A DNA stretch of 64,000 nucleotides from Verrucomicrobiota bacterium (GTDB taxonomy: Bacteria > Verrucomicrobiota > Verrucomicrobiia > Limisphaerales > UBA8199): the NCBI GenBank assembly GCA_012517205.1, contig JAAYVL010000121.1:66-64065 (forward strand). The letters are read 5' to 3'. Of the stretch, positions 32,804-61,256 are shown piece by piece (the stretch's first letter is position 1; each line of letters starts with the position of its first letter). The notes below the pieces were generated by a model. It was given only the letters and a program-made list of their open reading frames with translations, was not told the DNA's origin and searched no databases. Position numbers and translations under genes: made by a program.

Positions 32804-33490
32804 ATGGCTCAGGCCAAACGGAAACAGGTCATGGACAGCCGGAAACGGATTCTCCTGGTGGACGACCACGCCGTGGTCCGGTTCGGCATCGCGCAGCTTG
32901 TGAACCAGCAAAGCGACCTGGTGGTTTGCGGCGAAGAGGAGGACGCCGCCAACGCGCTGCGCGCCATCAGCCAGCTCAAGCCCGACCTGGTGATCGCGGA
33001 CATCTCCCTCAAAGACAGCAGCGGCCTGGAGCTGATGCGCAATATCAAAGCGCAACACGCCGGGCTGCCGGTGCTGGTCGTGAGCGCGCACGATGAGTCC
33101 CTCTACGCGGAGGTCGCCTTCCGCGCGGGCGCGCTCGGCTATTTGATGAAAGCCGACGCCCTGGAAAAAGTCCTGGTCGCCATTCGCCGGGTGCTGGACG
33201 GCAATGTGTATGTGAGCGACGCGCTGGCGGCCCGGCTGCTGCAGCAACAAGTCCGCGGCGCCCGGTGCATCCAGGAATCTCCCGTCAAAGGCCTCAGCGA
33301 CCGGGAACTCGAAGTCTTCCAACTCATCGGCCAATGGAAGAAGACCCGGGAAATTGCCCAGGCCCTGCACCTGAGCATCAAAACCATCGAGTATTACCGG
33401 GAGCAAATTAAACAAAAACTGGATCTGAAAGGCACCGCCGAACTCACCCAATACGCCACCGCCTGGGTGCAGCGCGAAAACCCTGCCTGA
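32804..33490 (+). CDS. NarL/FixJ-family response regulator (receiver + LuxR HTH)
   Basis: RILLVDDHAVVRFG, LVIADISLKD and LSDRELEVFQLIGQWKKTREIAQALHLSIKTIEYYREQIKQKL. No histidine kinase is adjacent. Confidence 0.9.
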   Translation: MAQAKRKQVMDSRKRILLVDDHAVVRFGIAQLVNQQSDLVVCGEEEDAANALRAISQLKPDLVIADISLKDSSGLELMRNIKAQHAGLPVLVVSAHDESLYAEVAFRAGALGYLMKADALEKVLVAIRRVLDGNVYVSDALAARLLQQQVRGARCIQESPVKGLSDRELEVFQLIGQWKKTREIAQALHLSIKTIEYYREQIKQKLDLKGTAELTQYATAWVQRENPA

Positions 33491-34015: not shown

Positions 34016-34351
34016 TTTCCAGGGAATCTGGATAACGAATTCGGGGGGCAGGAAAGGGCGAGAAGAGGAAAGCGGATGGGAAGATAATTATTAAGCTCCG
34101 CAAAAACAGCTAGTTATGAAACCAGGGCTGACTAAATGCGGTTTTTCAAGGGCGGATGGGCATCCGGATGGCTTTTGGCTTCGCGAATGCTTTATCTGAA
34201 ACGTTGACGTTGCGCAGCCCAACCGCACGCCCTTCCCGAGTTGGCGGTTCCCGCCGAGGGCCTGGCAGTGGATAGGTAGTGAATGGCGGCGGGCGCGCTT
34301 GACTTCGACCGGCAAAGTTTGGAACATGAATTAGAGTATAGAAGACGAGCC

Positions 34352-34591
34352 ATGATGCCATTGTATGAATATGAACTCTGCGAGGGTGATTGCGTGGTGT
34401 GTGGCGGCAAGTTTACCCTGCGACGCCCGCTGTCCGCGGCGCCCCTGACCCAATGTCCCGCGTGTAAAAAACCGGTTCGCCGGGTTTGGTCCACCTTTAA
34501 CTCCCCCAGGACGGTCTCGATTTCCGACGCCAAGAAAGCCGGGTTCACGGTGCTGAAGCGTGTCGGCAAAGGCGAGTACGAGCGCCAGTAG
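34352..34591 (+). CDS. FmdB-family zinc-ribbon putative regulatory protein
   Basis: MMPLYEYELCEGDCVVCGGKF...CPACKKPVRRV shows the CxxC...CxxC FmdB/CxxC_CxxC_SSSS pattern. Start is ATG 34352 inside ORF 34283..34591. Confidence 0.75.
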   Translation: MMPLYEYELCEGDCVVCGGKFTLRRPLSAAPLTQCPACKKPVRRVWSTFNSPRTVSISDAKKAGFTVLKRVGKGEYERQ

Positions 34592-34713
34592 CCGGCCCGG
34601 CGTGCCGGCCATCGGCGAGGCAATTCCCTGGAAAGCGGATTTACATCCGGAATGCCAAACCCTATAGTTGGCAAATGACGCCAACCGGGGTTCCCCGGTG
34701 CGGCGGCGAGCTT

Positions 34714-35076
34714 ATGCTGGTGCATTTATTAAAGTCGAAAATACATCGCGCGCGGGTGACGGCGGGCGACGTAAATTATGAGGGCAGCCTGGGTATTGCC
34801 CGCGACCTCATGGATAAAGTGGGGTTGTTGCCGTACGAGCGCATTCTCTGCGGCAACATGGCCAATGGCGAACGATTTGAGACCTACGCCATAGCCGCCG
34901 AGCCGGGCTCGGGCCAGATCATCCTCAACGGCGCCACCGCCCGACTCGGCAAACCGGGCGACCTGATCACGATTTTAAGCTTTACCGAGGTGGAATGGGC
35001 CGCCGCCCAGACCTGGAAACCCCGCGTCATTGTGCTCGGGGAAGACAACCGGATCATCCGTGAACGCGGAATTTGA
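34714..35076 (+). CDS. panD: aspartate 1-decarboxylase
   Basis: MLVHLLKSKIHRARVTAGDVNYEGSLGI (Gly-Ser self-cleavage site), then ...ILNGATARLGKPGDLITILSF. Confidence 0.9.
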   Translation: MLVHLLKSKIHRARVTAGDVNYEGSLGIARDLMDKVGLLPYERILCGNMANGERFETYAIAAEPGSGQIILNGATARLGKPGDLITILSFTEVEWAAAQTWKPRVIVLGEDNRIIRERGI

Positions 35077-35126
35077 TGGCGACGACACCCGCCAAGACCC
35101 CCGCCGCCCCGAACTAAGCAACCTTC

Positions 35127-37154
35127 ATGGCGCATAAACTGACCACTTGCACCTTCTGCGGGGTCGGCTGCGGGATTTATCTGGAGGCGGTTGGCAACCA
35201 GATCGTGGGGGCCTATCCCAGCATGTCGCATCCGGCGAACGAGGGCCGGATTTGCGTGCGAGGCTGGCATGTGCACGAGGTGGCCAGTTCCCCCGGCCGG
35301 TTGAAACGCCCGCTGCTCAAGAAGGGCGGCCAGTTCGAGGAAGTGTCGTGGGAGGAGGCGCTCGGTTTCATCATCGGCCGCATGAAGGAGCTGCACGCGC
35401 GGCACGGCGCGGAGGCCTTCGCTTTTCTCAACTCGCCGCGCTGCTCCAACGAGGAATCGTACCTGCTGCAAAAGCTGGCCCGGGCGGTCATCGGAACCAA
35501 CAACGTGGACCACGGCACCGGGGTTTACTGCAACAATTCCATCAATGTCCTGCTCGACATGCTCGGCGTGCCGGCGACGACCAATTCCATCGGCGAACTG
35601 GCCCGCAGCGAGGTCATCATCGTGGACGGCGTGGACCTGGCTCTCCAGTTGCCCAGCATCGGCGGAACCGTCATCCGGGCCAAGCTGGCGGGGGCCACAC
35701 TCGTGGTCATTGACAGCCGGCGCCACCGGGTGGCGGAAAGCGCGGACCTTTTCCTGCAACTCAAGCCCGGCACGGAGCCGATCCTCTACGGCGCCCTGGC
35801 CAAGGTCATTGTGGACCGCGGCCTGATGAACCTGCCGTTCATCAAGGCCCACTGCCGCGACTACGACCGGTTTCTGGCGCGGGTGCGGGATTACGATTTG
35901 CTGGCGGCGGCCGAGGCGTGCGGCGTGGACGCGGGGCTGATTGAGGCGGCGGCCCTGGCTTACGCCCGGGCCCGGTCGGCGGCGATTCTGTATTCGACCG
36001 GCATCGAGGCCCGCGACGCCGAACCGGTGCAGGCCATTGTGAACCTGGCGCTGTTGACGGGGCAAATCGGGCGGGAAGGCGCGGGCATCTTCGCGCTGAC
36101 CGAGCACAACAACCTGCAAGGGGTCTGCGATATGGGCATGCTGCCCGACCGGTTGCCGGGCTATCGCCAGGTTGACAGCGCGGCGGCGCGCGCGGAGGTG
36201 GGCCGGGTCTGGCAAACGAAATTGCCGGCCGCACCCGGCCTGGCCTCGCGCGCCATTTTCAACAACCGCGGCGCCAGCCCGGTGCGCGCGATCTGGCTCT
36301 GCCGCTACGACCCGGTGAGCTCCGCCTTCTTCGGCGACGCGGCGGACGCGCTCGACCGGTGCGAGCTGGTCGTGGCGCAGCATTTGTTTCTCACGGACAC
36401 CGCGCGCCACGCGCATGTGGTCCTGCCCACCACCGCCTTTGGCGAGGAGCAGGTGACCTTTACCAACACCGAACGCCGCATTCAACTGGCGGAGCAGATT
36501 ATAGATCCGCTGCCCGGCACCACCCCCGCCTGGCGGCAGTTGACCCAGGTGGCGCGCGCGCTGGGCGCTGACTGGCGATATGAGTCGGCCGCCGACGTGA
36601 TGGACGAGATCGGCGCGGTCATTCCCTTCTACGGCGGCGCGAACTACCGCAACCTGGCCGCCGAATACGGCCGGCAATGGCCGTGCAGCAAGGACCGGCC
36701 GCTCGGCACGCGCTATCTCTTTGCGGACGGCCTGCCGGCGCAGGGGTTCAAGTTTGCGCCGATTGCCCGCCATGCGCCGGCGGCGGTGGTTTCGGACGAA
36801 TACCCCCTCACGCTGGTCTTTGGTCATTCGCTCTATTACTGGAACCAGAGCGTGCTGATCAAACACAGCGAGACACTGAAGCGCGAGTACCGCATCCTGC
36901 TGCTCGATTACCCGGAAGGCTTCGTCGAAATCAACCCCGCCGATGCCCAGCAAGCCGGCATCCGCGACGGGGAAAAGGTGCGGCTGACGGCCGCCGGCGG
37001 CTCGGCGGTGATCAACGCCCGGGTCACCTCCGAGGTGCGCCAGGGGGCGGTCTATGTGCCGTATTTTGTGCGGCAGGTGCAGCGGCAAATCTGCGGCGCG
37101 GCGCAAAGCGGCGTCCAGCTCATCCCGGCGCGCATCGCGAAGGAGCCCGCATGA
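35127..37154 (+). CDS. molybdopterin (bis-PGD) oxidoreductase, FdhF/NuoG-like, non-canonical active site
   Basis: The N-terminal 4Fe-4S motif is CTFCGVGCG...C. The protein is collinear with E. coli FdhF as recalled (QKLARAVIGTNNVD..., NNLQGVCDMGMLPD..PGY). The Sec/Cys-His and Arg positions are not conserved (see findings). There is no in-frame TGA. Confidence 0.85.
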   Translation: MAHKLTTCTFCGVGCGIYLEAVGNQIVGAYPSMSHPANEGRICVRGWHVHEVASSPGRLKRPLLKKGGQFEEVSWEEALGFIIGRMKELHARHGAEAFAFLNSPRCSNEESYLLQKLARAVIGTNNVDHGTGVYCNNSINVLLDMLGVPATTNSIGELARSEVIIVDGVDLALQLPSIGGTVIRAKLAGATLVVIDSRRHRVAESADLFLQLKPGTEPILYGALAKVIVDRGLMNLPFIKAHCRDYDRFLARVRDYDLLAAAEACGVDAGLIEAAALAYARARSAAILYSTGIEARDAEPVQAIVNLALLTGQIGREGAGIFALTEHNNLQGVCDMGMLPDRLPGYRQVDSAAARAEVGRVWQTKLPAAPGLASRAIFNNRGASPVRAIWLCRYDPVSSAFFGDAADALDRCELVVAQHLFLTDTARHAHVVLPTTAFGEEQVTFTNTERRIQLAEQIIDPLPGTTPAWRQLTQVARALGADWRYESAADVMDEIGAVIPFYGGANYRNLAAEYGRQWPCSKDRPLGTRYLFADGLPAQGFKFAPIARHAPAAVVSDEYPLTLVFGHSLYYWNQSVLIKHSETLKREYRILLLDYPEGFVEINPADAQQAGIRDGEKVRLTAAGGSAVINARVTSEVRQGAVYVPYFVRQVQRQICGAAQSGVQLIPARIAKEPA

Positions 37155-38233
37155 AAGCCCGCTTGCTGGAACGCGCTCAGGTGCTGACGCTGGTGGATCT
37201 CCTCCGGCAGCAGGGCTACGACGTATTTGCCCCCTTTGCCGGGCGCGGGCGCGACACGTGGTTCGACCTGGTCACCGACGAAAATCGCGGCCAGGTCCAG
37301 ATTCATTTGCCCAACCCGTATTATCCGCCCAAACGCTTTGTCCTGCCGCATATCGAGCGGTTGCTGAAGGTGCGGCGGCACGATGGAACCTTCCACATCG
37401 AGCCGATTTACCGGGAGCGCAAGCGCGCCATCTTCGGCCTTCGCTCCTGCGACCTGGCCGGCATCTGGCACCTGGACCGCTTCTACCTTGGGCGCGAGTT
37501 TCGCGATCTCTATTACCAGAAACGCCGGGAGAACCTGCTCCTGATCAACGTGGTCTGCACGGACCTGGAGCGCGATATTGGGGACGAGTGCTTCTGCGTA
37601 TGCGCCGACACCGGCCCGGCGGCGCGCGATCATTTTGACCTGCAGCTCATGGACCTGGGCGACGAGTTCATGGTTGTTGCCGGCACGGCGGCGGGCGAGG
37701 CGTTCTTCACCCAGCCGATGTTCCGGCCGGCCACGGCGGCGCACGTCGAAAAACGCCGCGCCATCCTGGCGGAGGTGCGCAAACGGTTCAAGACCACCAC
37801 CAGTTGGTTTGCGGCCACGGTGCGCTACGTTTCCCGGGGCGACATCCTGGAGCAGACGTGGGAGGAAATCGGCAATCGCTGCCTGGAATGTGGCGGCTGC
37901 ACCTACGTTTGCCCCGCCTGCACCTGCTTTACCGTCAGCGATCGCCAGGTGGGCCCCGACGAAATCGAGCGGGTGCGCATCTGGGACGCCTGCGCCCTGA
38001 GCGGATTCACGCGCATGGCCGGCGGCTTCAACCCGCGCCGCGCGGTGCATGACCGCCGCAACCGCCGCTTCATGCGCAAGCTGGCGCATTACTTCATCCA
38101 GCGCGAGTTGACCATGGCCTGCGTGGGCTGCGGCCGCTGCGCGGCGGTTTGCCACGGAGATGTCGGCATGCCCAGCGTGGTCGAGATGATCCGGCGGGCC
38201 ACCGCGATCCACGACCGGATTCCCCCCTCATGA
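37151..38233 (+). CDS. 4Fe-4S dicluster protein, AsrA / sulfhydrogenase beta (HydB)-like
   Basis: ATGA overlap with the upstream stop. Cluster motifs are CLECGGCTYVCPACTCF and CVGCGRCAAVCHGDVG. The overall layout matches anaerobic sulfite reductase subunit A / HydB. Confidence 0.8.
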   Translation: MKARLLERAQVLTLVDLLRQQGYDVFAPFAGRGRDTWFDLVTDENRGQVQIHLPNPYYPPKRFVLPHIERLLKVRRHDGTFHIEPIYRERKRAIFGLRSCDLAGIWHLDRFYLGREFRDLYYQKRRENLLLINVVCTDLERDIGDECFCVCADTGPAARDHFDLQLMDLGDEFMVVAGTAAGEAFFTQPMFRPATAAHVEKRRAILAEVRKRFKTTTSWFAATVRYVSRGDILEQTWEEIGNRCLECGGCTYVCPACTCFTVSDRQVGPDEIERVRIWDACALSGFTRMAGGFNPRRAVHDRRNRRFMRKLAHYFIQRELTMACVGCGRCAAVCHGDVGMPSVVEMIRRATAIHDRIPPS

Positions 38234-39105
38234 ACCCGACCCTCCCCAAGGTGACTTCCTGCGAACCGGCGGAAGAAAATATCTATCTGCCCAAGCTCGC
38301 GGTGCTGGACCGGGTGACGGACGACATCCCGGAGGTAAAGACCTTCTACTGGCATTTTGAGGATCCGGCGGAGCAGGCAAAGTTCAAACGGTTCCGCCCT
38401 GGCCAGTTCGCGCAGGTGTCGTTGTTCGGCGTCGGTGAATTTCCGGCCTCGCTGCCCCCCAGCCCGACCGAGGAGGAAACCTTCTTCACCATCCGCACGG
38501 TCGGCAGTTGCACCGCCGCGCTGCACCAGTTGCGGCCCGGCGACCGGTTTGCCGTCCGCGGCCCCTACGGCAACGGGTTTTCCATGGAGGATTATTACGG
38601 GAAAAACCTGGTGTTTGTGGCCGGGGGCATCGGGCTGATCCCGCTGCGCTCCTGCATCGTGTACGCGCTCCGGCACCGGGATAAATATCAGCGCATCCAG
38701 ATTTTCTACGGCGCCCGGACGCCGAAGGAGTTGATGTATGTCCCCAACCTGCGCGAGTGGCAGCAATCGGCGGGCGTCGAATGCCATCTCACCGTGGATC
38801 GCGCGGCGGAGGGCTGGGACGGCCCCGTGGGTGTGGTCGGCAGCCTGTTCCAGCGGCCGGGGGTGAAGATTCCGGTGGAGAACACCATCGCCTTTGTCTG
38901 CGGCCCGCCCATCATGTTCCGCTTCGTAATCAAGGACCTGCTGGCGATGGGGTTTCAGGAAAAGGACATCGTTTCGACGCTCGAACGGTATATGAAGTGC
39001 GGCGTCGGCAAATGCGGCCACTGCTGCATCGGCGTGGCCTACGTGTGCGTGGACGGCCCGGTGTTCACCTACGAGCAAATCAAGAAACTGGGAGAGGATA
39101 TCTGA
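38230..39105 (+). CDS. FAD/NAD(P)-binding 2Fe-2S oxidoreductase, AsrB / sulfhydrogenase gamma (HydG)-like
   Basis: ATGA overlap with the upstream gene. Motifs are RPGQFAQVSL, FFTIRTVG (FAD), LVFVAGGIGLIPL (NAD(P)) and a C-terminal CGVGKCGHCC...C 2Fe-2S site. Confidence 0.8.
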   Translation: MNPTLPKVTSCEPAEENIYLPKLAVLDRVTDDIPEVKTFYWHFEDPAEQAKFKRFRPGQFAQVSLFGVGEFPASLPPSPTEEETFFTIRTVGSCTAALHQLRPGDRFAVRGPYGNGFSMEDYYGKNLVFVAGGIGLIPLRSCIVYALRHRDKYQRIQIFYGARTPKELMYVPNLREWQQSAGVECHLTVDRAAEGWDGPVGVVGSLFQRPGVKIPVENTIAFVCGPPIMFRFVIKDLLAMGFQEKDIVSTLERYMKCGVGKCGHCCIGVAYVCVDGPVFTYEQIKKLGEDI

Positions 39106-39659
39106 TGCCCGACCTGCGCCAATTGCTCGCACCGCTCCTCCAGGGCCGCGTCTGCCTGGTGGGGATCGGGAATGTGGACTATGGGGACGATGGCTTCGGG
39201 GTGCGGCTGGCGGAAGCGCTGCAAGCCTCGCCCATCACGGCGGAGGTGATGATTGCCGGCTCCGCTCCCGAGCGCTGCCTGGGGCGGGTGGCGAACGGGG
39301 GCTTTGAGCGCGTGATCTTTCTCGACGCGGTGGACTTTGGCGGCGCGCCGGGCGCGGTGATCCTGCTCGATGCGCGGGAGCTAATCGCCCGGTTCCCGCA
39401 GGTTTCCACGCACAAGCTTTCGCTGGGCCTGCTGGCGCGGCAAATCGAGGCGCAGGGCCGCATACGCGTCTGGCTCCTGGGCGTGCAACCGGAATCACTT
39501 AAGCTCCGCGGCGCTCTGACGCCCACGATACAGACTACCCTGGAACTGTTGCATGCGTTGCTGACCGCCGGCGCGGAGAATTGCCGGCTGGCGCGGTCGG
39601 AATCGCCGGAGCCCGGCTCCAAACCTGCGGAAACCACCCTCCGGGAGGTGCTGGCATGA
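39105..39659 (+). CDS. [NiFe]-hydrogenase maturation endopeptidase (HycI/HyaD family)
   Basis: TGATG overlap with the upstream gene. Motifs VCLVGIGNVDYGDDGFG, IFLDAVDFG and THKLSL resemble HycI. Confidence 0.8.
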   Translation: MPDLRQLLAPLLQGRVCLVGIGNVDYGDDGFGVRLAEALQASPITAEVMIAGSAPERCLGRVANGGFERVIFLDAVDFGGAPGAVILLDARELIARFPQVSTHKLSLGLLARQIEAQGRIRVWLLGVQPESLKLRGALTPTIQTTLELLHALLTAGAENCRLARSESPEPGSKPAETTLREVLA

Positions 39660-41572
39660 CGCCCGAACAATCAGTCCTGGCGGCCATTGTCCTCTGCCTC
39701 GGCGGGGCGGGACTGACCCTGCTGGCCTCGCGGAACAAGACAGTCGCGGGTGGGCTGGCGTTCGTGTTCACCCTGGCGGCGGCGGTGATAATGGTCTCGA
39801 CCGTGACCCGGGTCCTCATCTCCGGGCCCGGGCACTCGGCGGAGTTTAGCCTTCTGCCACAGATTGGCCTGGTGCTGCGGGTCTATGTGGACGGCCTGAC
39901 GGCGCTTTTCCTGTTGTTGACCGCGCTGGTCTCCGTGCCCGCCGCGCTTTATTCGGTGGTGTATATGCGGAACTATGAAGGTTATAGCGCAGCCCGCTAC
40001 TACCCCTATTTCCTGATCTTCCTGGCGGCGATGTACGGCCTGGTGAGCACGACCGACATGATGTGGTTCTTCTTCATCTTCTGGCAGATGATGACCCTGC
40101 CGGGCTACGCGCTCATCCGGTTCGAGCACCGGAAACCGGCCAACATCCGCGCGGCCAACCGGTACCTGGTCATGATGCAAATCGCCTGCGCCGCCACGAT
40201 GATCGGCGCCGAATTGCTGGCGGTGGCGGGCGCCACTACGAGCGGCAGCCCGGGCCTGAAGTACGATTTCGATACCGTCAGCGCCAACCTGCCGGCGCTG
40301 CTCAGCGCCCGGCCCGGCATGACCGCCCTGGCCTTCGCGTTGTTCCTCGCGGGCTTTGGCATCAAGATGGGCATGTGGCCGTTTGGCCAGTTCTGGCTGC
40401 CGGATGCGCACCCCGCCGCGCCGTCGCCGGTCAGCGCAATGCTCTCCGGCGTGATGATTAAGACCGGCGTTTACGGGCTGATGCGCTACTTCCTCTGGCT
40501 GGTGCCGCCGGCGGGCCTGGCGGATTACCCGCTGGCCCCGTGGGGGCTGGTGGTCGCGCTGCTGGGCACGATCACCCTCTTTACGGGCACCATGCAGGCG
40601 CTCAAGCAGGAGCAGTCCAAGCGATTGCTCGCCTTCCATAGCATCGGCCAGGTCGGCTACATCCTCCTGGGCACCGGCGTCTGCATGAGCCTCCTGCCCG
40701 CCGCAGATCCCCGGGCGGCGGCGCTGGCCGCCCTCGGCTTCTGCGGCGCGCTGCTTCACGTGCTCAACCACGGTCTTTTCAAGGCGCTGCTCTTCCTCAA
40801 CGCCGGTTCGATGCTGCAGGCCACCGGCACCCAGGATCTGAACCGGATGGGCGGGCTGATGAAGTTCATGCCTCTCACCGCCATCACCGCGCTCGTGGCC
40901 TCCTGCTCGATCTCCGGGGTGCCGCTCTTTAATGGCTTTATCAGCAAATGGACCATCTACGTCGCGGCGGTGCAGGGATGCGGCTCCGCCAAATACCTCG
41001 CCGTCTGCGCCCTCCTCGCCATCCTGACCAGCGCCCTGACGCTGGCCTCGTTCATCAAGTTCTTCGGGGTGAGTTTCCTTTCGCGCGCGAGCGCGCTGGT
41101 GACCGCGCGGGCGGCCCGGCCCGGGCGGCTGGAAGTGGGCTGGACGATGCAGTTGCCGCAAGTCGCCCTGGCCCTGGCCTGTGTGTTGCTGGGCGTGGCG
41201 CCGGCCCTGGGCTTCCGTTTGGTGCAGCGAGTTCTGGAAACCAGCAGTTCGGGCTGCGGCACGGCGCTGGCCGCCGCCGCGCCCCTGCAAACCAGCCTGT
41301 GGAGCGGCGTGGCGCAACTGCAATCCGCAGCCTTGTTCGCCCCGCTGGTCCTGGCCGCGGCGCTGGGTCTGCTGCTGCTGGCGGCGCACGCGCTTTCCCG
41401 GATCGGCCATGCGTCGCGCCGGGCCACTGCGCCGTGGCTCTGCGGCTACGCGCGCGAGGCCGATTGCCACCGCTATTCCGCTCACAACTTCTACGCCGAA
41501 ATCAAACGCTACTTCCGCTGGCTGGGCGGGGCTCCCGATAACCGCAATTTGCACCCGGAGGAAAAACCATGA
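39656..41572 (+). CDS. hydrogenase membrane subunit, NuoL/HycC/HyfB-like antiporter-type
   Basis: ATGA overlap with the upstream gene. 638 aa and polytopic, with antiporter-like motifs (WPFGQFWLPDAHPAAPSPVSAMLSGVMIKTGVYG, AFHSIGQVGYILLG). Confidence 0.85.
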   Translation: MTPEQSVLAAIVLCLGGAGLTLLASRNKTVAGGLAFVFTLAAAVIMVSTVTRVLISGPGHSAEFSLLPQIGLVLRVYVDGLTALFLLLTALVSVPAALYSVVYMRNYEGYSAARYYPYFLIFLAAMYGLVSTTDMMWFFFIFWQMMTLPGYALIRFEHRKPANIRAANRYLVMMQIACAATMIGAELLAVAGATTSGSPGLKYDFDTVSANLPALLSARPGMTALAFALFLAGFGIKMGMWPFGQFWLPDAHPAAPSPVSAMLSGVMIKTGVYGLMRYFLWLVPPAGLADYPLAPWGLVVALLGTITLFTGTMQALKQEQSKRLLAFHSIGQVGYILLGTGVCMSLLPAADPRAAALAALGFCGALLHVLNHGLFKALLFLNAGSMLQATGTQDLNRMGGLMKFMPLTAITALVASCSISGVPLFNGFISKWTIYVAAVQGCGSAKYLAVCALLAILTSALTLASFIKFFGVSFLSRASALVTARAARPGRLEVGWTMQLPQVALALACVLLGVAPALGFRLVQRVLETSSSGCGTALAAAAPLQTSLWSGVAQLQSAALFAPLVLAAALGLLLLAAHALSRIGHASRRATAPWLCGYAREADCHRYSAHNFYAEIKRYFRWLGGAPDNRNLHPEEKP

Positions 41573-43239
41573 CCGCGCGCGAACGTCTCAACCAGTTGAA
41601 GGAGAAGTTTGGCCCGGCCATCCAGCGCGCGGACCTGCCCGGCGACTCCCGCCTGTTTGCCTATGTCGAGCCCGCCACGCTCAAGGCCGTCTGCCAGTAT
41701 CTTTTCCGCGAGTTGGATGCCCGCTACGTCATCAGCATCGGGCTCGATGACCGGCCTTTCTCGGGCAAGTTTCTCGTCGCCCATAACTTCGCTTTCGACC
41801 GCGATCGTCTGCTGTGCAGCATGCTGGCCCACCTGCCCGCGGACCACCCGGAGGTGGACAGCATCGCCCCCGCCGTGCCCGGCGCCAACTGGGCCGAGCG
41901 CGAATTTCGCGAACTGGTTGGCATCGAGCTCCGCGGCCATCCCTATCCCAAACGGCTGGTGCTGCCGGATGGCTGGCCCGACGGCGTGCACCCGCTCCGC
42001 AAGGACGTGCCCTGGAACCAGGTGCCGGCGGACTTCGATGAGAATGCCGAGTTCACCTTCGACGACCCGCCGGCGGGCTGCACCGTGGTGCCGTTCGGGC
42101 CCTTCCATCCGACCCTGGACGAGCCGGAGCATTTCCGGCTCTACGTCGAGGGCGAAATGGTGCGCGGCTGCGAGTACCGCGGCTTTATGGTGCACCGCGG
42201 CATCGAGAAGCTGGCTGAATCCGTCCTCACCTACAACGACATCCCGTTAATGGCCGAACGCATCTGCGGCATCTGCGGCTGCGTGCATAACGTCACCTAT
42301 GCCCAGGCGGTGGAAACGGCCGTGGCGCTGCGCCCGCCGCCCCGCGCCGAATACATCCGCACGATCATGCTCGAAATCGAGCGGCTGCACAGCCATTTGC
42401 TCTGGGTCGGGCTGGCCTGCCACATCGTGGGCTTCGACACGCTTTTCATGCAAAGCTGGCGCATCCGCGAGCCGATCATGTGGATCGCGGAAAAGATCAG
42501 CGGCAACCGCAAGACCTATGCGCTCTGCGTCATCGGCGGCGTGCGCTGGGATATTACGCCCGAGGTGAAAGTGGAACTGCGGCACCTGCTGGACAAGCTG
42601 GAGAGGGAATGGCGCGAGGTTGTGGCCGCCGTGAGTCGGGACAAGAATATCCAAAAACGCACGCGCGGCGTGGGCGTGGCGGATCAGGCGCTGATCAAAT
42701 CCCTCGGGCTAATCGGGCCGGTCGCGCGCGCGGCGGGAGTGGATATTGATTGCCGCCGCGATCATCCCTATGCCGCCTACGACCGCGTGGATTTCGCGGT
42801 CATCACTGATACCGGCGGCGATGTTTGGTCGCGCGTCGTGGTGCGCATGAACGAGGTGTTCGAATCCATCCGGATTATTCGCCAGTGCCTGGAAAAAATG
42901 CCGGAGGGGCCGCTGCAGGCGTCCATCCCGGATGAACTCCCGCCCGGCCGCCTGGGGCTGTCTTCGGTCGAGGCGCCGCGCGGCGAGAGCCATCATTTCG
43001 TCATTACCGGCGAGAATAACCGTCCACACCGCTGGCGCGTGCGCGCGCCCACCTACCAGAATCTCCAGGCGGTGCCGATGATGATCAAGGATCAGCAACT
43101 GGCGGACATGACCATTTCTCTCGGCAGCATAGACCCCTGCTTCTCCTGCACGGATCGGCTGGAGACGATTGACCTGAAATCGGGCGCGACGCGGGTGTGG
43201 TCGCAGGCTGAACTCATCCGGCTGGTGAGAAAGACCTGA
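41569..43239 (+). CDS. group-4 [NiFe]-hydrogenase large subunit, HycE-type (NuoC-like + NuoD-like fusion)
   Basis: ATGA overlap with the upstream gene. The N-terminal NuoC-like part carries NWAEREFRELVGIELRGHPYPKRL. Ni-Fe ligand motifs are RICGICGCVH and DPCFSCTDR, followed by a 26-aa C-terminal extension, the expected protease substrate. Confidence 0.9.
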   Translation: MTARERLNQLKEKFGPAIQRADLPGDSRLFAYVEPATLKAVCQYLFRELDARYVISIGLDDRPFSGKFLVAHNFAFDRDRLLCSMLAHLPADHPEVDSIAPAVPGANWAEREFRELVGIELRGHPYPKRLVLPDGWPDGVHPLRKDVPWNQVPADFDENAEFTFDDPPAGCTVVPFGPFHPTLDEPEHFRLYVEGEMVRGCEYRGFMVHRGIEKLAESVLTYNDIPLMAERICGICGCVHNVTYAQAVETAVALRPPPRAEYIRTIMLEIERLHSHLLWVGLACHIVGFDTLFMQSWRIREPIMWIAEKISGNRKTYALCVIGGVRWDITPEVKVELRHLLDKLEREWREVVAAVSRDKNIQKRTRGVGVADQALIKSLGLIGPVARAAGVDIDCRRDHPYAAYDRVDFAVITDTGGDVWSRVVVRMNEVFESIRIIRQCLEKMPEGPLQASIPDELPPGRLGLSSVEAPRGESHHFVITGENNRPHRWRVRAPTYQNLQAVPMMIKDQQLADMTISLGSIDPCFSCTDRLETIDLKSGATRVWSQAELIRLVRKT

Positions 43240-43240
43240 T

Positions 43241-44161
43241 ATGAGCCTCGTCACCGTCATCCTGGGTTTCCTGGTCAACGTCGTCCTCGTGCTGCTGCTC
43301 GCCCCCCTGTTTCAGGGCGTGTTGCGCAAAGTCACGGCCCAAGTCCAATCGCGCCAGGGCCCGCCGCTTCCGCAGCCTTACTTCGATCTCCTCAAATTGC
43401 TGGGCAAGGAGGACCTCGAGTCCGGCCAGATGCCCGCTATGCAGCGATTCGCGGCCTGCCTTTCGCTGGCCACCATGCTCACGCTTGCCGGACTGGTGCC
43501 AATGGGTTTCGCCGCGCCTTTGAACGGGGCGGGCGATGTGATTCTGGTGATCTATCTCCTGACGCTCTCCGGCATCTGCACGTTGCTGGCGGGTTTGGCG
43601 GCCGGGTCCACCTATTCCCTGGTCGGCATCAGCCGTGAAATGATGACCATGATCGCACTCGAACCCCTGTTCGCCGTGGCCATTATCGCTGGGGCCATCC
43701 ACACGGGCTCTTTCCGGCTGGATACGGTTTTCAATGGCTCCGTGTATGCCGGGAACACCTTCCCCTGGTCGGGACTGATTCTACTGGGAGTAATCCTGTT
43801 ATCCTTCCAAGCCTTCGTGCAGCGGGTGCCGTTCGACCTTTCCGAGGCGGAAACCGAGTTGATGGAAGGGCCGCTGATGGAATACTCCGGCCCGAAGCTG
43901 GCGCTGTTCAAGTATGCGCAAATGGCCCGGCTCGTCATTTACAGTGCGTTGTTCGTGAACCTGTTCGTGCCATGGGGTTCGGCCCTGGCGTTCCCGCTTG
44001 GCTGGCTGCTCTTTTGGCTCAAAGTGTGCGGCCTGGTGCTGCTGGTGACGCTCGTGGCGGCCACGCACGCCCGCTACCGGATTGACCAGGCTCTTCGCTT
44101 CTTCGCCGCTCTGCTGGGCGTGGGGCTGGGAGCTTTGATCCTCGCCTGTTATGGTTACTGA
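43241..44161 (+). CDS. hydrogenase membrane subunit, NuoH/HycD-like
   Basis: 306 aa and polytopic, with NuoH-like motifs (RKVTAQVQSRQGP, FDLSEAETELMEGPLMEYSG). Confidence 0.85.
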   Translation: MSLVTVILGFLVNVVLVLLLAPLFQGVLRKVTAQVQSRQGPPLPQPYFDLLKLLGKEDLESGQMPAMQRFAACLSLATMLTLAGLVPMGFAAPLNGAGDVILVIYLLTLSGICTLLAGLAAGSTYSLVGISREMMTMIALEPLFAVAIIAGAIHTGSFRLDTVFNGSVYAGNTFPWSGLILLGVILLSFQAFVQRVPFDLSEAETELMEGPLMEYSGPKLALFKYAQMARLVIYSALFVNLFVPWGSALAFPLGWLLFWLKVCGLVLLVTLVAATHARYRIDQALRFFAALLGVGLGALILACYGY

Positions 44162-44170
44162 AAAGCTCGC

Positions 44171-44695
44171 ATGTCTCTCTTAAGCAAATTGCAGGAAACC
44201 CTGGTCTGCCTCAAAGCGGGGCGCGTCACGCTGCCGTACCCCGCGCAGGCGGGCCCCGTGCCGGAAACATTCCGCGGACGGCCAATCTTTGACGCGGCCA
44301 GGTGCATCGGCTGCGCCGGTTGCGCCAGCAATTGCCCCGCGCGTGAAATCCTGGTCGTGGATGTCTGCCAGGAAATCCGCATCCTGCAATACCTCGGGCG
44401 CCGCTGCACCTACTGCGGGCGCTGCGCGGATGTATGCCCTGAAAAGGCCATCACCATGAGCCGCGAGTTCGAGACCGCCACCGACCGCATCGGCGATATT
44501 CGTCAACGGCTGGAGCTGTTCATGAGCACCTGCCAGCGCTGCGGCCGCTGCTTCACAGAACCCTCACCCTTGGAACAGTTGAAACTCAAGGGCTACCGCT
44601 TCGACGACGTGCAGAACGAACGTTGGATTTTCCGATCGCAAGCTTACCTGACGAGTGAAGCGGCCGTGGACGATATCAGCATTGACCTGGACTAA
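44171..44695 (+). CDS. 2x[4Fe-4S] ferredoxin subunit, NuoI/HycF-like
   Basis: CIGCAGCASNCP and CTYCGRCADVCP, plus an extra CQRCGRC. Confidence 0.85.
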   Translation: MSLLSKLQETLVCLKAGRVTLPYPAQAGPVPETFRGRPIFDAARCIGCAGCASNCPAREILVVDVCQEIRILQYLGRRCTYCGRCADVCPEKAITMSREFETATDRIGDIRQRLELFMSTCQRCGRCFTEPSPLEQLKLKGYRFDDVQNERWIFRSQAYLTSEAAVDDISIDLD

Positions 44696-44877
44696 TGAGA
44701 AAACTGCCTGCGAGATCCGCCCAATGGCGCTAAAAGGATGAAGACGGTTGAAGGTCTAATCTACATGAACGATCCGGCTCTAACGGAAGGAGAAGGTTTT
44801 GCGGTGTTTCAATCCGGACTACGGAGTTCAAACACCCATATTTTAGCGCCTCTGGCCCTGTTTTGCGGACAATCGCC

Positions 44878-45414
44878 ATGTTAAGGAATCTGTGCCAGAA
44901 GATGTTTGGGCGCTCGCTGTGGGTGTATCACGCCAACAGCGGTGGGTGCAATGGCTGCGACATCGAAGTTTTGAATGTCCTGACTCCCTATTATGACGTC
45001 GAGCGCTTCGGCATCAAACTGGTCGGTTCACCCCGCCATGCCGACGTCATGCTCTGCCAGGGCCCGGCGATGCGTTCCACCGCCAAAGCACTGCAGCGCG
45101 CTTACGAAGCCATGCCCGCCCCAAAACTCGTGTTTGCCATCGGCTCCTGCGCCTGCGGCGGCGGCATCTGGTTTGACTCCTATTCCGTGCTGGGGCCAGT
45201 TGAAAAGCTCGTGCCGGTTAATTTCTATATCCCCGGCTGTCCGCCACGGCCTGAAGCCATCATTTATGGCGTCGCTGTAGCTGTGGGGTTGGTGGACAAA
45301 AAGGTGGCGCCCGTGACGTTCAAACAACTGGAAATGCCCATCCCGCGTTACCATCCTGCCGACCTGCGCGGCTCCGGCGAGTTGATCGTTTACGAGAAGG
45401 CCGAGAAGGTGTAG
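44878..45414 (+). CDS. [NiFe]-hydrogenase small subunit, NuoB/HycG-like
   Basis: GGCNGCDIE, GSCACGGG and IPGCPPRPE cluster ligands. ATG 44878 is preferred over TTG 44863. Confidence 0.88.
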   Translation: MLRNLCQKMFGRSLWVYHANSGGCNGCDIEVLNVLTPYYDVERFGIKLVGSPRHADVMLCQGPAMRSTAKALQRAYEAMPAPKLVFAIGSCACGGGIWFDSYSVLGPVEKLVPVNFYIPGCPPRPEAIIYGVAVAVGLVDKKVAPVTFKQLEMPIPRYHPADLRGSGELIVYEKAEKV

Positions 45415-57883: not shown

Positions 57884-58599
57884 ATGAACCTTATTACGAA
57901 CCTTTTTCAGTCGTCAGTCGGTAAGAAATACATCATGGCCATCACGGGCGGCTGCCTGCTCCTCTTTGTCCTTGGACACCTCGCGGGCAATTTACAAATC
58001 TTCCTCGGTCGGGAAATCATTAATCGCTACGCTCATTTCCTCCAGTCCAACCCCGAATTGATCTGGCCGGTACGGATGGGCATGCTGGTGATCTTAGCCC
58101 TCCATATCTGGGCCGGAATCACCCTGTCGCTGGAAAACAAAGCCGCCCGCCCTGTGGCATACGCCCAATACCAGCCTTTCGGCTCGACTTTTGCCTCGCA
58201 AACCATGCTTCTGAGCGGGCTTATGGTATTTGCGTTCCTCGGCTATCATCTCCTGCACTACACGGCCAAAGTCCAATTCATCAACCTCACACATCAGGAC
58301 TTTGCTGCTTTCACGGAAAAACTCCCAGGCCCGGCATCGGTGGAGCGGCCCGACATCTTCAAGATGATGGTGGTAGGCTTCCGCAAACCCATAGTCTCGG
58401 CCTTTTATGTCCTGGGACTGGCGCTTCTGGGGTTGCACCTTAGTCATGGCGCCAGCAGCTTGTTTCACTCGCTCGGCTGGAGAACGGACGCCTACCGCCC
58501 GTGCCTCGACCGCGCCGCCCGCGTGCTCGCCCTGCTGCTCTTTCTTGGCTACTGCGCCATTCCGGCCGCCATTCTCTGCGGCTATGGAAAGGAGGTCCT

Positions 58600-58609
<10 letters not shown>
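57884..58609 (+). CDS. sdhC: succinate dehydrogenase/fumarate reductase cytochrome b subunit (b558 family)
   Basis: 241 aa with five hydrophobic helices carrying conserved His residues. It sits directly upstream of, and overlaps, sdhA. Confidence 0.75.
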
Positions 58610-60512
<1,903 letters not shown>

Positions 60513-60516
<4 letters not shown>

Positions 60517-61256
60517 ACCTGACCCTCAAAGTCTGGCGGCAGAAAAACGCCGCCACCCCGGGCCGGTTCCAAACCTACCCGGCCCGCAATCTCTCCCCCG
60601 ACATGTCCTTCCTGGAGATGCTCGACGTGGTCAACGAGGACCTCATCACCCGCGGCGAGGAGCCAATCGCCTTTGACTCCGATTGCCGGGAGGGCATCTG
60701 CGGCATGTGCTCGATCGTCATCAATGGCATCCCGCACGGCGGCCACCACGGCACCGCCGCCTGCCAGCTCCACTTGCGGCATTTCCAGGACGGCGACACG
60801 CTCACCCTCGAGCCCTGGCGCGCAAAGGCCTTTCCGCTCATCAAAGACCTCATCGTCAACCGCACCGCCCTCGACCGCATCATCCAAGCCGGCGGCTTTG
60901 TCTCCGTGAGCACCGGCGGCACGCCCGACGCCAACGCCCTCCCGGTTCCCAAAGACATCGCCGACCGCGCCATGGACGCCGCCGCCTGCATCGGCTGCGG
61001 CGCCTGTGTCGCCGTCTGCAAAAACGCTTCGGCGATGCTTTTCGTCGCCGCCAAAGTCTCACACCTCAACCTTCTGCCCCAGGGCAAAGCCGAAAAAGAC
61101 CGTCGCGTCTTGAATCTGGTAAAGCAGATGGATATGGAGGGCTTCGGCGGTTGCACGGTCACCGGCTCCTGCGAAGCCGTTTGCCCCAAGGAAATCAGCC
61201 TTAGCTTTATTGCCCGGATGAACCGCGACTACGGCGCGGCCATTATCAAATCATGA
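60513..61256 (+). CDS. sdhB: succinate dehydrogenase/fumarate reductase iron-sulfur subunit
   Basis: ATGA overlap with sdhA. Cluster motifs are [21 protein letters not shown] and CEAVCP. Confidence 0.92.

Follow-up and report, generated by a model that had tools for sequence, protein, structure and literature searches.

An FdhF-like gene heads a nine-gene hydrogenase operon

We analyzed a 64-kb stretch of DNA from a Verrucomicrobiota bacterium (64,000 nucleotides of contig JAAYVL010000121.1, assembly GCA_012517205.1; here called the window), and in particular a gene for a homologue of FdhF, the formate dehydrogenase (FDH) of the Escherichia coli formate hydrogenlyase (FHL). The gene leads a row of nine closely spaced, translationally coupled genes (Table 1), in which neighbours overlap by 4 bp at four junctions and by 1 bp at another. 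Its reading frame is open over all 675 codons with zero internal stops, and its G+C content at third codon positions (GC3, 0.86) is usual for expressed genes of the window. A profile search found the Pfam domains Molybdop_Fe4S4, Molybdopterin and Molydop_binding in the FdhF-like protein; the top NCBIfam model was FDH alpha (TIGR01591), with a score of 553.4 bits that falls below the curated cut-off of 666.25. The protein begins straight at Molybdop_Fe4S4 (residue 5), NuoG models aligning only from about their position 212 on, and it keeps the four cysteines of the proximal [4Fe-4S] cluster (C8, C11, C15 and C43). The catalytic set of FDHs is replaced by Arg45, Tyr134, Cys135 and Thr325-Glu326-His327. 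A 740-aa open reading frame (ORF) runs antisense to the gene (34884-37106, minus strand); such long antisense ORFs have a GC3 that is low compared with their GC1, which rules them out as genes, and they are artefacts produced by a G+C content of 63-66%.

Table 1. Genes of the operon and the two former active-site segments of the FdhF-like protein, with window coordinates.
Feature	Coordinates	Strand	Basis
FdhF-like MopB (alpha) subunit, 675 aa	35127..37154	+	Pfam, TIGR01591, alignments, AlphaFold/Foldseek
Former active-site loop NNVDHGTGVYCNNS, counterpart of FdhH NNVDCCARVUHGPS	35505..35546	+	Alignments; Tyr134 and Cys135 inside
ALTEHNNLQG block, counterpart of FdhH PVRGQNNVQG	36093..36122	+	Alignments; Thr325 inside
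Beta subunit, HydB/AsrA-like FeS protein (Fer4_22)	37151..38233	+	Pfam PF17179; NCBIfam sulfhyd_HydB
Gamma subunit, HydG/AsrB/PyrK-like, FAD/NAD(P) and C-terminal [2Fe-2S]	38230..39105	+	Pfam NAD_binding_1 and DHODB_Fe-S_bind; NCBIfam PRK08345, sulfhyd_HydG
HycI-type hydrogenase maturation endopeptidase	39105..39659	+	Pfam PF01750
HyfB/NuoL-type antiporter-like membrane subunit	39656..41572	+	Pfam Proton_antipo_M/N; NCBIfam hydrogenase 4 subunit B, 398 bits
HycE-type fused NuoC-NuoD [NiFe] large subunit	41569..43239	+	Pfam; RICGICGCVH, DPCFSCTDR; C-terminal extension for HycI cleavage
HycD/NuoH-type membrane subunit	43241..44161	+	Pfam NADHdh
HycF/NuoI-type 2x[4Fe-4S] subunit	44171..44695	+	Pfam Fer4 families; NCBIfam hydrogenase 4 subunit H / FHL iron-sulfur subunit
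HycG/NuoB-type [NiFe] small subunit	44863..45414	+	Pfam Oxidored_q6

Residues required for formate oxidation are replaced

Metal-dependent FDHs strictly conserve and require a Cys or selenocysteine (Sec) ligand and an active-site Arg; the His beside the ligand is replaceable only by Gln, and then together with a compensating RGH motif, the natural case being ForC (PMC8808070). Replacement of Lys44 by Arg is by itself sufficient to reduce E. coli FdhH to 7% activity (PMC12176258).

The positions of these residues were determined by computed alignment. With the solved FdhF of the Thermoanaerobacter kivui hydrogen-dependent CO2 reductase (HDCR), HMMER pairs the reference segment NNVDHCARLCHAPT with NNVDHGTGVYCNNS of the query, and PLRGQNNVQG with ALTEHNNLQG. 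A MAFFT alignment of 32 canonical FDH representatives with E. coli FdhF, NuoG and NapA pairs FdhH U140 with Y134, H141 with C135, R333 with T325 and K44 with R45. Alignment by hmmalign to a canonical-FDH profile gave the same register as both. Tyr134 is encoded by tac (35526-28), Cys135 by tgc (35529-31) and Thr325 by acc (36099-101). A first-pass annotation of this DNA, aligned by eye, had matched Sec140 with Tyr134, His141 with Cys135 and Arg333 with Thr325 and had judged its register credible; the three independent alignments reproduce each of these pairings. The single exception is the HMMER pairwise alignment with Bacillus subtilis ForC (YjgC; motif SRYCQ), which opens a one-residue gap and places Cys135 on the ForC Cys. 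The loop may therefore, as judged from sequence alone, carry a one-residue insertion, in which case the His position would hold Asn136.

At the position of FdhH residue 140 the protein thus has Tyr134 in place of a Sec or Cys metal ligand, and the adjoining position has Cys135 in place of His or of Gln with a compensating RGH. The segment that contains the active-site Arg, R-G-[QHE]-N-N-V-Q-G in FDHs, reads T-E-H-N-N-L-Q-G, and Arg45 occupies the place of the Lys between the proximal [4Fe-4S] cluster and the pterin (FdhH Lys44). The protein is predicted to lie outside the metal-dependent FDH family because these four defining features are absent, and by the same prediction it cannot be a conventional formate dehydrogenase. 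A selenoprotein with a miscalled stop was ruled out, in agreement with the first-pass annotation, since no in-frame TGA occurs over the 675 codons and the codon aligned with Sec is TAC.

The replacements are conserved among orthologues

In a scan of one genome per species, at least 460 genomes encode a relative of the FdhF-like protein. The best 80 (63-89% identity) were taken, and residues were tallied at each position in the resulting alignment of 81 species-level orthologues. The FeS cysteines C8, C11, C15 and C43 are invariant, as are N328 and N329, and G130 and G132 of the former active-site loop. Several of the replacements are equally fixed: Arg45, Tyr134 and Arg393 (FdhH Gly402) occur in 81/81 sequences, Glu326 (FdhH Gly334) and His419 (FdhH Asp429) in 80/81, and Ala at position 468 (FdhH Asp478) in 73/81. 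Conservation of the substitutions in orthologues rules out sequencing error, chance or an assembly artefact as their source. Position 325 is Thr in 58 sequences, Ser in 13, Ala in 7, Gly in 2 and Asn in 1, with Arg in none, and position 135 is Cys in 49, Ser in 22, Gly in 6, Ala in 2, and Asn and Thr in 1 each. The question, raised in the first-pass annotation, of whether orthologues share the Tyr-Cys pair and the Thr is thus answered positively for Tyr134 and only in part for Cys135 (49/81) and Thr325 (58/81). His replaces Asp128 in 20 of the 80 loci.

A set of 120 homologues of at least 71% identity gave a similar picture: Tyr134 occurred in each of the 118 sequences where the motif could be located, the LTE[HQ] block in 119 of the 120 (the remaining one having LNEQ), and position 135 was mainly Cys and sometimes Gly or Ser. 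The residue at 135 also varies inside phyla (C33/S3/G1/A1/T1 in Verrucomicrobiota, C11/S13/G5/A1 in Acidobacteriota), and a relative of 57% identity (P0121) has Tyr-Arg at positions 134-135, yet sits in the same full operon. It had been suggested at first pass that a Cys shifted by one position could still ligate Mo or W. This role for Cys135 now appears unlikely, because orthologues in a fixed operon can have Gly, Ala, Asn or Arg there instead.

The fold is retained and the cofactor is likely lost

An AlphaFold (AF2) model based on a deep alignment reached a predicted local distance difference test score (pLDDT) of 91.4 and a predicted template-modeling score (pTM) of 0.93. Foldseek matched this model, at query-normalized template-modeling (TM) scores of 0.89-0.90, to ForC, the FDHs of Methylorubrum extorquens and Rhodobacter capsulatus, E. 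coli FdhH and the NapA of Desulfovibrio desulfuricans. The four-domain molybdopterin-oxidoreductase fold is accordingly modeled as intact, and with the four cysteines in this fold the proximal cluster is intact. The protein is under purifying selection. When only orthologues of 71-89% identity were aligned, the pLDDT was 62.9, with weak segments at residues 1-55, 103-111, 124-140, 170-177, 292-295, 325-348, 394-402, 437-459 and 567-596, and also, for example, at 500-536. These are mostly the FeS domain and the former cofactor-binding motifs; they are confident with the deep alignment, and their weakness is probably an effect of alignment depth, not biology.

We defined FDH-conserved columns as those at least 90% conserved in canonical FDHs. 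There are 90 such columns in the MAFFT alignment, from which the NuoG statistics below were also taken. The orthologue clade keeps 62 and has lost 28. The losses (FdhH numbering) include K44R, C136G, R138G, U140Y, H141C, N176D, H181L, P203S, T300E, G305D, R333T, G334E, Q335H, V338L, G402R, K451E, G453V, D478A, T579F, R581H, S630A, N662Q, D670G and K679Q. In terms of motifs, GxNxxxxHP has become GVDLxxQLP, GENP has become RYDP, QD has become QH and TGR has become FGH. The changes from Gly to a bulky or charged residue (G334E, G402R and G453V) are invariant or nearly so.

The pattern of loss resembles that of NuoG, which has lost 25 of the 28 columns lost by the clade vs 29 of the 62 kept (Fisher odds ratio 9.5, p=1.4e-4). 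NapA, which has the same cofactor as the FDHs and a different substrate, keeps 18 of the 28 clade-lost columns, and the clade losses are not associated with NapA losses (p=0.62). From these comparisons it is likely that the FdhF-like subunit has lost the Mo/W-pterin cofactor.

The operon combines a group-4 hydrogenase with a sulfhydrogenase-type module

Immediately downstream of the FdhF-like gene lie the genes for the beta and gamma subunits, the beta start overlapping the FdhF-like stop by 4 bp (ATGA). The beta subunit is a Fer4_22 protein whose sulfhyd_HydB score (148 bits) lies under the equivalog cut-off; its top PDB match is the beta subunit of Pyrococcus furiosus sulfhydrogenase I (9nez_B, E 4.8e-36). 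The gamma subunit has FAD/NAD(P) and 2Fe-2S domains and matches best the gamma subunit of the same enzyme (9nez_C, E 3e-56). The two are predicted to be relatives, not orthologues, of the sulfhydrogenase/AsrAB subunits, because the scores fall under the equivalog cut-offs. The HycE-type large subunit has the two CxxC motifs and a C-terminal extension, here a 26-aa tail, and is accompanied by HycI; its top PDB match is HycE of E. coli FHL (7z0s_E, E 2.7e-126).

Gene order, determined by tblastn with the nine proteins, is the same in all 80 loci wherever the contig extends, and one orthologue of 75% identity has the same nine genes amid unrelated flanks. The gamma motifs GGIGLIPL and CGVGKCGHC are present in 72 and 73 of the 81 loci, the remaining contigs ending before the gene, and the motifs RICGICGCVH and DPCFSCTDR in 66-67 loci that reach the HycE-type gene. 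Median identity across loci is 68% for the FdhF-like protein, the lowest of the redox subunits, vs 78-88% for the others, with HycG highest at 88%. A gene for a HycB-type multi-cluster ferredoxin was found neither in this operon nor in any of the 80 related loci; its place is taken by the HydB-like and HydG-like genes. By gene content, with no HycB and no competent FDH, the operon would not be a canonical FHL.

A 167-bp non-coding spacer (44696-44862) separates hycF from hycG. It is absent from a locus of 89% identity (L006), where the genes abut, a spacer of about 500 bp lies there in L010, and the 167-bp spacer has no repeat in the rest of the window or among the fetched loci. In seven loci (L013, L019, L020, L023, L025, L026 and L084) an additional stretch of about 2 kb separates the HyfB-like gene from the HycE-like gene, possibly for one more antiporter-like subunit by analogy with Hyf as compared to Hyc.

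Distribution and the wider family

The 80 loci belong to 8 phyla: Verrucomicrobiota (39), Acidobacteriota (30), Nitrospirota (3), Desulfobacterota (3), and Omnitrophota, Armatimonadota, Planctomycetota and Methylomirabilota with one carrier each, in addition to one unclassified metagenome-assembled genome (MAG). The carriers are mainly MAGs, many from peat, fen, soil and groundwater, and include one Methylacidiphilum MAG.

After clustering at 50%, relatives of the FdhF-like protein drop from 57% and 51% identity to about 37%. In two of these (P0125 and P0127, 35-36% identity), Fer4_22 and PyrK-like genes follow downstream, and in P0127 then HycI, HyfB and one further gene at the contig end, so that both operons match the nine-gene operon as far as their short contigs extend. 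The former active-site loops of P0125 and P0127 differ from that of the query and from each other; across the operon family no catalytic constellation is conserved. Pterin motifs of the GxNxxxxHP, GxNP, QD and GR type are kept in the degenerate relatives P0125, P0128 and P0134.

The same trio of alpha, beta and gamma subunits is predicted to occur with a competent enzyme. P0135 (locus L093) is a canonical FDH alpha, with Cys-His and Arg-Gly-Gln, that is followed by a Fer4_22 gene; genes for a PyrK-like protein and a MobA-like nucleotidyltransferase lie upstream of it. P0134 (locus L094), also flanked by Fer4_22 and PyrK-like genes, is a non-canonical alpha with a Leu-Tyr-Asp loop and LLEQNN that keeps most pterin motifs. 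The trio may represent a kind of NAD(P)-linked molybdoenzyme that is widespread and so far undescribed. Its occurrence with a competent FDH suggests an ancestral NAD(P)-linked FDH module in which alpha decayed by degrees once the module was attached to the hydrogenase, a direction of history that we infer from the present-day forms.

Among the 150 closest representatives at 50% identity (P0121-P0270), 32 pass a strict pattern of C-x-R-x-C-H and R-G-[QH]. Many of the rest are without one or both motifs, and many of these are NuoG/HoxU-fused forms of about 890 aa; some of the rest escaped the patterns. Degenerate FDH-like subunits appear to be common in sequence space.

Comparison with known systems

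The hydrogenase part of the operon is like E. coli FHL (FdhF-HycBCDEFG, PDB 7Z0S/7Z0T) and Hyf in its HycE-type large subunit with NiFe ligands and C-terminal extension, in HycI, HycD, HycF, HycG and the HyfB/HycC-type subunit, and in that an FdhF-family protein is encoded alongside. It differs in that its FdhF homologue is without Sec/Cys140, His141, Arg333 and Lys44, HycB is replaced by the HydB-like and HydG-like (NAD(P)H/FAD) subunits, and most loci have one antiporter-like subunit only.

NuoG, a cofactor-less and inactive FDH-like module, is a precedent for the FdhF-like subunit. The C-terminal domain of NuoG/Nqo3 also has an FDH-derived MopB fold from which the metal ligand and the residues for the cofactor have gone; K44R and N176D are common to it and the FdhF-like protein, and it is likewise attached to a complex-I-type membrane module. 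NuoG is the more degenerate of the two, keeping 36 of the 90 FDH-conserved columns vs 62. Its N-terminal 2Fe-2S/4Fe-4S domain forms the main electron wire, whereas the FdhF-like protein has the proximal cluster only, and NAD(H) enters complex I via NuoEF, in place of which the operon has its PyrK-like gamma subunit. Lacking the N-terminal FeS domain (HoxU/[FeFe]-hydrogenase-like), the FdhF-like protein is predicted not to be NuoG itself.

The beta and gamma subunits of P. furiosus sulfhydrogenase I (PDB 9NEZ), together with AsrA/AsrB, are the top matches of the two genes after the FdhF-like gene. In the sulfhydrogenase they serve a soluble group-3b hydrogenase, whereas here, with scores far under the equivalog cut-offs, they belong to a group-4 membrane-bound operon with an FdhF-like protein. 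B. subtilis ForC (PDB 8RQZ), the top structural match (query-normalized TM 0.90), also deviates at the His position (Cys-Gln) and has a Tyr before its Cys (SRYCQ vs GVYCN in the query). ForC, however, keeps the Cys ligand, the Arg, the Lys and the RGH compensation, whereas the query is without the Arg, and its Cys is out of register and unconserved. OmeA of Dehalococcoides and QrcB are presumably further FDH-derived parts of redox complexes that have no formate activity; both are periplasmic. ForC is an active formate:menaquinone oxidoreductase (PMC8808070). StnC's FdhF-like domain in the Stn transhydrogenase (PDB 8OH5) is described as catalytically inactive and considered an evolutionary remnant (PMC10482914); it is like the query in being FDH-derived without formate activity, but is fused into a NuoG-like polypeptide of a soluble bifurcating enzyme.

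A probable electron-transfer role for the FdhF-like subunit

We consider it probable that the FdhF-like subunit is a demoted, NuoG-like electron-transfer or scaffold part of an NAD(P)H-linked group-4 [NiFe] hydrogenase. Its ligand, His, Arg and Lys are all replaced, and its lost columns overlap those lost by NuoG. This FdhF-derived subunit has kept its fold and proximal [4Fe-4S] cluster, its site for formate oxidation is dismantled, and according to this model it would act, like the C-terminal domain of NuoG in complex I, as a non-catalytic relay or scaffold. The operon core is that of an intact membrane-bound group-4 [NiFe] hydrogenase of the E. coli FHL type (HycE/D/F/G with HyfB and HycI), and the NAD(P)H/FAD/FeS module is intact as well. 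Electrons would pass from NAD(P)H to the FAD and 2Fe-2S of gamma, to the FeS clusters of beta, and on through HycF and HycG to the NiFe site, where H2 would be released; the reverse direction would be possible. Turnover would be coupled to ion translocation via HyfB/HycD, and the cluster of the FdhF-like subunit would lie on or beside the electron chain. Probably, then, the nine-gene hydrogenase does not act as a formate hydrogenlyase; NAD(P)H is its more likely partner for electron exchange. The first-pass annotation had argued against formate and for either another substrate or a NuoG-like, purely electron-transferring role. All our findings fit this proposal, and the NuoG-like option is the likelier of the two because the sulfhydrogenase-type NAD(P)H module in the operon provides an alternative electron partner.

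Several points weigh against the NuoG-like role. Three or more of NapA, FdnG, DmsA and TorA share 35 of the FDH-conserved columns, and the clade keeps 29 of these 35; N176D is found in TorA as well, a genuine molybdopterin guanine dinucleotide (MGD) enzyme. The assignment of D478, R581, N662 and K679 as pterin or guanine contacts is presumptive. The replacement residues Y134, E326, R393, H419, E441, Y571 and W572 are invariant or nearly so in the clade, and such conserved replacements may mean a new functional pocket, not plain filling of a cavity. Cys and Ser together make up 71/81 at position 135, and both are known Mo ligands in the molybdoenzyme superfamily. Reduction of protons by NAD(P)H is endergonic at standard conditions, so that the enzyme may run in either direction; a low H2 partial pressure and a mildly acidic cytoplasm make the reaction feasible, in keeping with the peat and fen from which many carriers come. 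The function of each family member, finally, is read from genes and models, and the place of the FdhF-like subunit in the complex from genes.

As an alternative, the FdhF-like subunit may still bind a Mo/W-bis-pterin and catalyze another reaction, its electrons feeding the hydrogenase or the NAD(P) module. The metal ligand would then be Cys/Ser135 after a one-residue shift, Tyr134, or none as in arsenite oxidase. The whole four-domain fold and cleft architecture are kept in the model, and so are 29 of the 35 columns common to other MGD enzymes; the residues that replace the old ones in the pocket lining are strongly conserved in the clade, position 135 is mostly Cys or Ser, HMMER can set Cys135 on the ligand Cys of ForC, and the GxNxxxxHP, GxNP, QD and GR motifs are still present in remoter relatives with this operon, for example P0125. 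We nevertheless regard this alternative as unlikely. Position 135 is Gly, Ala, Asn or Thr in 10/81 sequences and Arg in P0121, all in the same operon, whereas the type of ligand is usually fixed within an enzyme family. The clade has lost 18 columns common to NapA and the FDHs, including H181, G334, D478, R581, N662 and K679, which NuoG has lost as well; the exchanges of Gly described above are invariant or nearly so; and members of the wider operon family have no conserved site in common. No gene for molybdenum cofactor biosynthesis, nor fdhD or hyp, was found in the operon or the 64-kb window, which is uninformative at that window size.

It is far less probable that the protein is an FDH with an unconventional site and the operon a true formate hydrogenlyase. 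All top sequence and structure matches are FDHs, E. coli FHL is the nearest match of the hydrogenase core, ForC is a natural case of a replaced His (PMC8808070), and MAG studies read clusters of fdhF with a hydrogenase as FHL (PMC6018796; PMC9599518). A Tyr at the Cys/Sec ligand position and loss of Arg333 in every orthologue are difficult to reconcile with this interpretation, given that both residues are strictly required (PMC8808070); Lys44 is replaced by Arg, the score is under the TIGR01591 cut-off, and HycB, the docking subunit for FdhF in E. coli FHL, is absent. That a gene without a role, in decay and in effect a pseudogene, is merely carried with the hydrogenase operon, as its standing as the least conserved redox subunit and its missing catalytic residues might suggest, is effectively refuted by conservation: an intact frame of 675 aa at 63-89% identity in 80 genomes of 8 phyla, a constant first place in the operon with a 4-bp overlap to the next gene, invariant FeS cysteines and many other invariant columns, and a GC3 usual for expressed genes.

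With the electron-transfer role as a basis, we propose more tentatively, and with rather more doubt than belief, that the operon encodes a previously uncharacterized, widespread respiratory enzyme, an ion-translocating complex-I-like hydrogenase that is NAD(P)H-linked and either proton-reducing or H2-oxidizing. It would have arisen when an FDH alpha/beta/gamma module docked on a hydrogenase of the FHL type lost its formate site, an independent replay of the step from FDH to NuoG in the evolution of complex I. The intermediates of such a replay would be a canonical FDH with the same beta and gamma subunits, forms in which only the catalytic residues are lost, and forms in which the pterin motifs are lost too.

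Implications for the reading of fdhF-linked hydrogenase clusters

An fdhF homologue beside a group-4 hydrogenase is routinely read in peat, soil and groundwater metagenomics as FHL, and hence as formate-driven H2 production; in the operon described here the homologue cannot be a conventional FDH, and an NAD(P)H module is present instead. Inactive FdhF-like modules are already known (NuoG, StnC), and the novelty would lie in the present combination and its breadth. To our knowledge no NAD(P)H-coupled group-4 hydrogenase has been characterized. The family would offer a natural series for following the demotion of molybdoenzyme subunits from catalysis to a structural or electron-transfer role, of the kind seen in complex I. 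In the literature searched, coverage of which was incomplete, we found no description of an operon type that combines an FdhF-like protein, a sulfhydrogenase-type module and a group-4 hydrogenase. MAG studies have called group-4 clusters linked to fdhF or FDH in peat Acidobacteria FHL (fdhF + hyf) or 4b (PMC6018796; PMC9599518). If these published clusters are of the same operon type, the donor of electrons inferred for H2 metabolism in these abundant lineages would shift from formate to NAD(P)H.

Genomic surroundings

Upstream of the operon, on the same strand, lie genes for a LuxR/NarL-type response regulator (32804-33490) and for aspartate decarboxylase (panD, 34675-35076), and between them a small ORF assigned by eye as an FmdB-like CxxC zinc-ribbon protein (34283-34591). 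Loci L002 and L003 also have a gene for a response regulator about 1 kb upstream of their operons, there on the opposite strand. Positions 57884-61256 hold a cluster for succinate dehydrogenase/fumarate reductase, with the flavoprotein at 58501-60516 and the FeS subunit at 60513-61256; a possible membrane subunit, for which no Pfam match was found, lies upstream. The rest of the window contains genes for a sulfatase, rhamnose utilization, a GH116 glucosidase and a tricorn-like protease, a gene content that fits the genome of a polysaccharide-degrading member of the Verrucomicrobiota.

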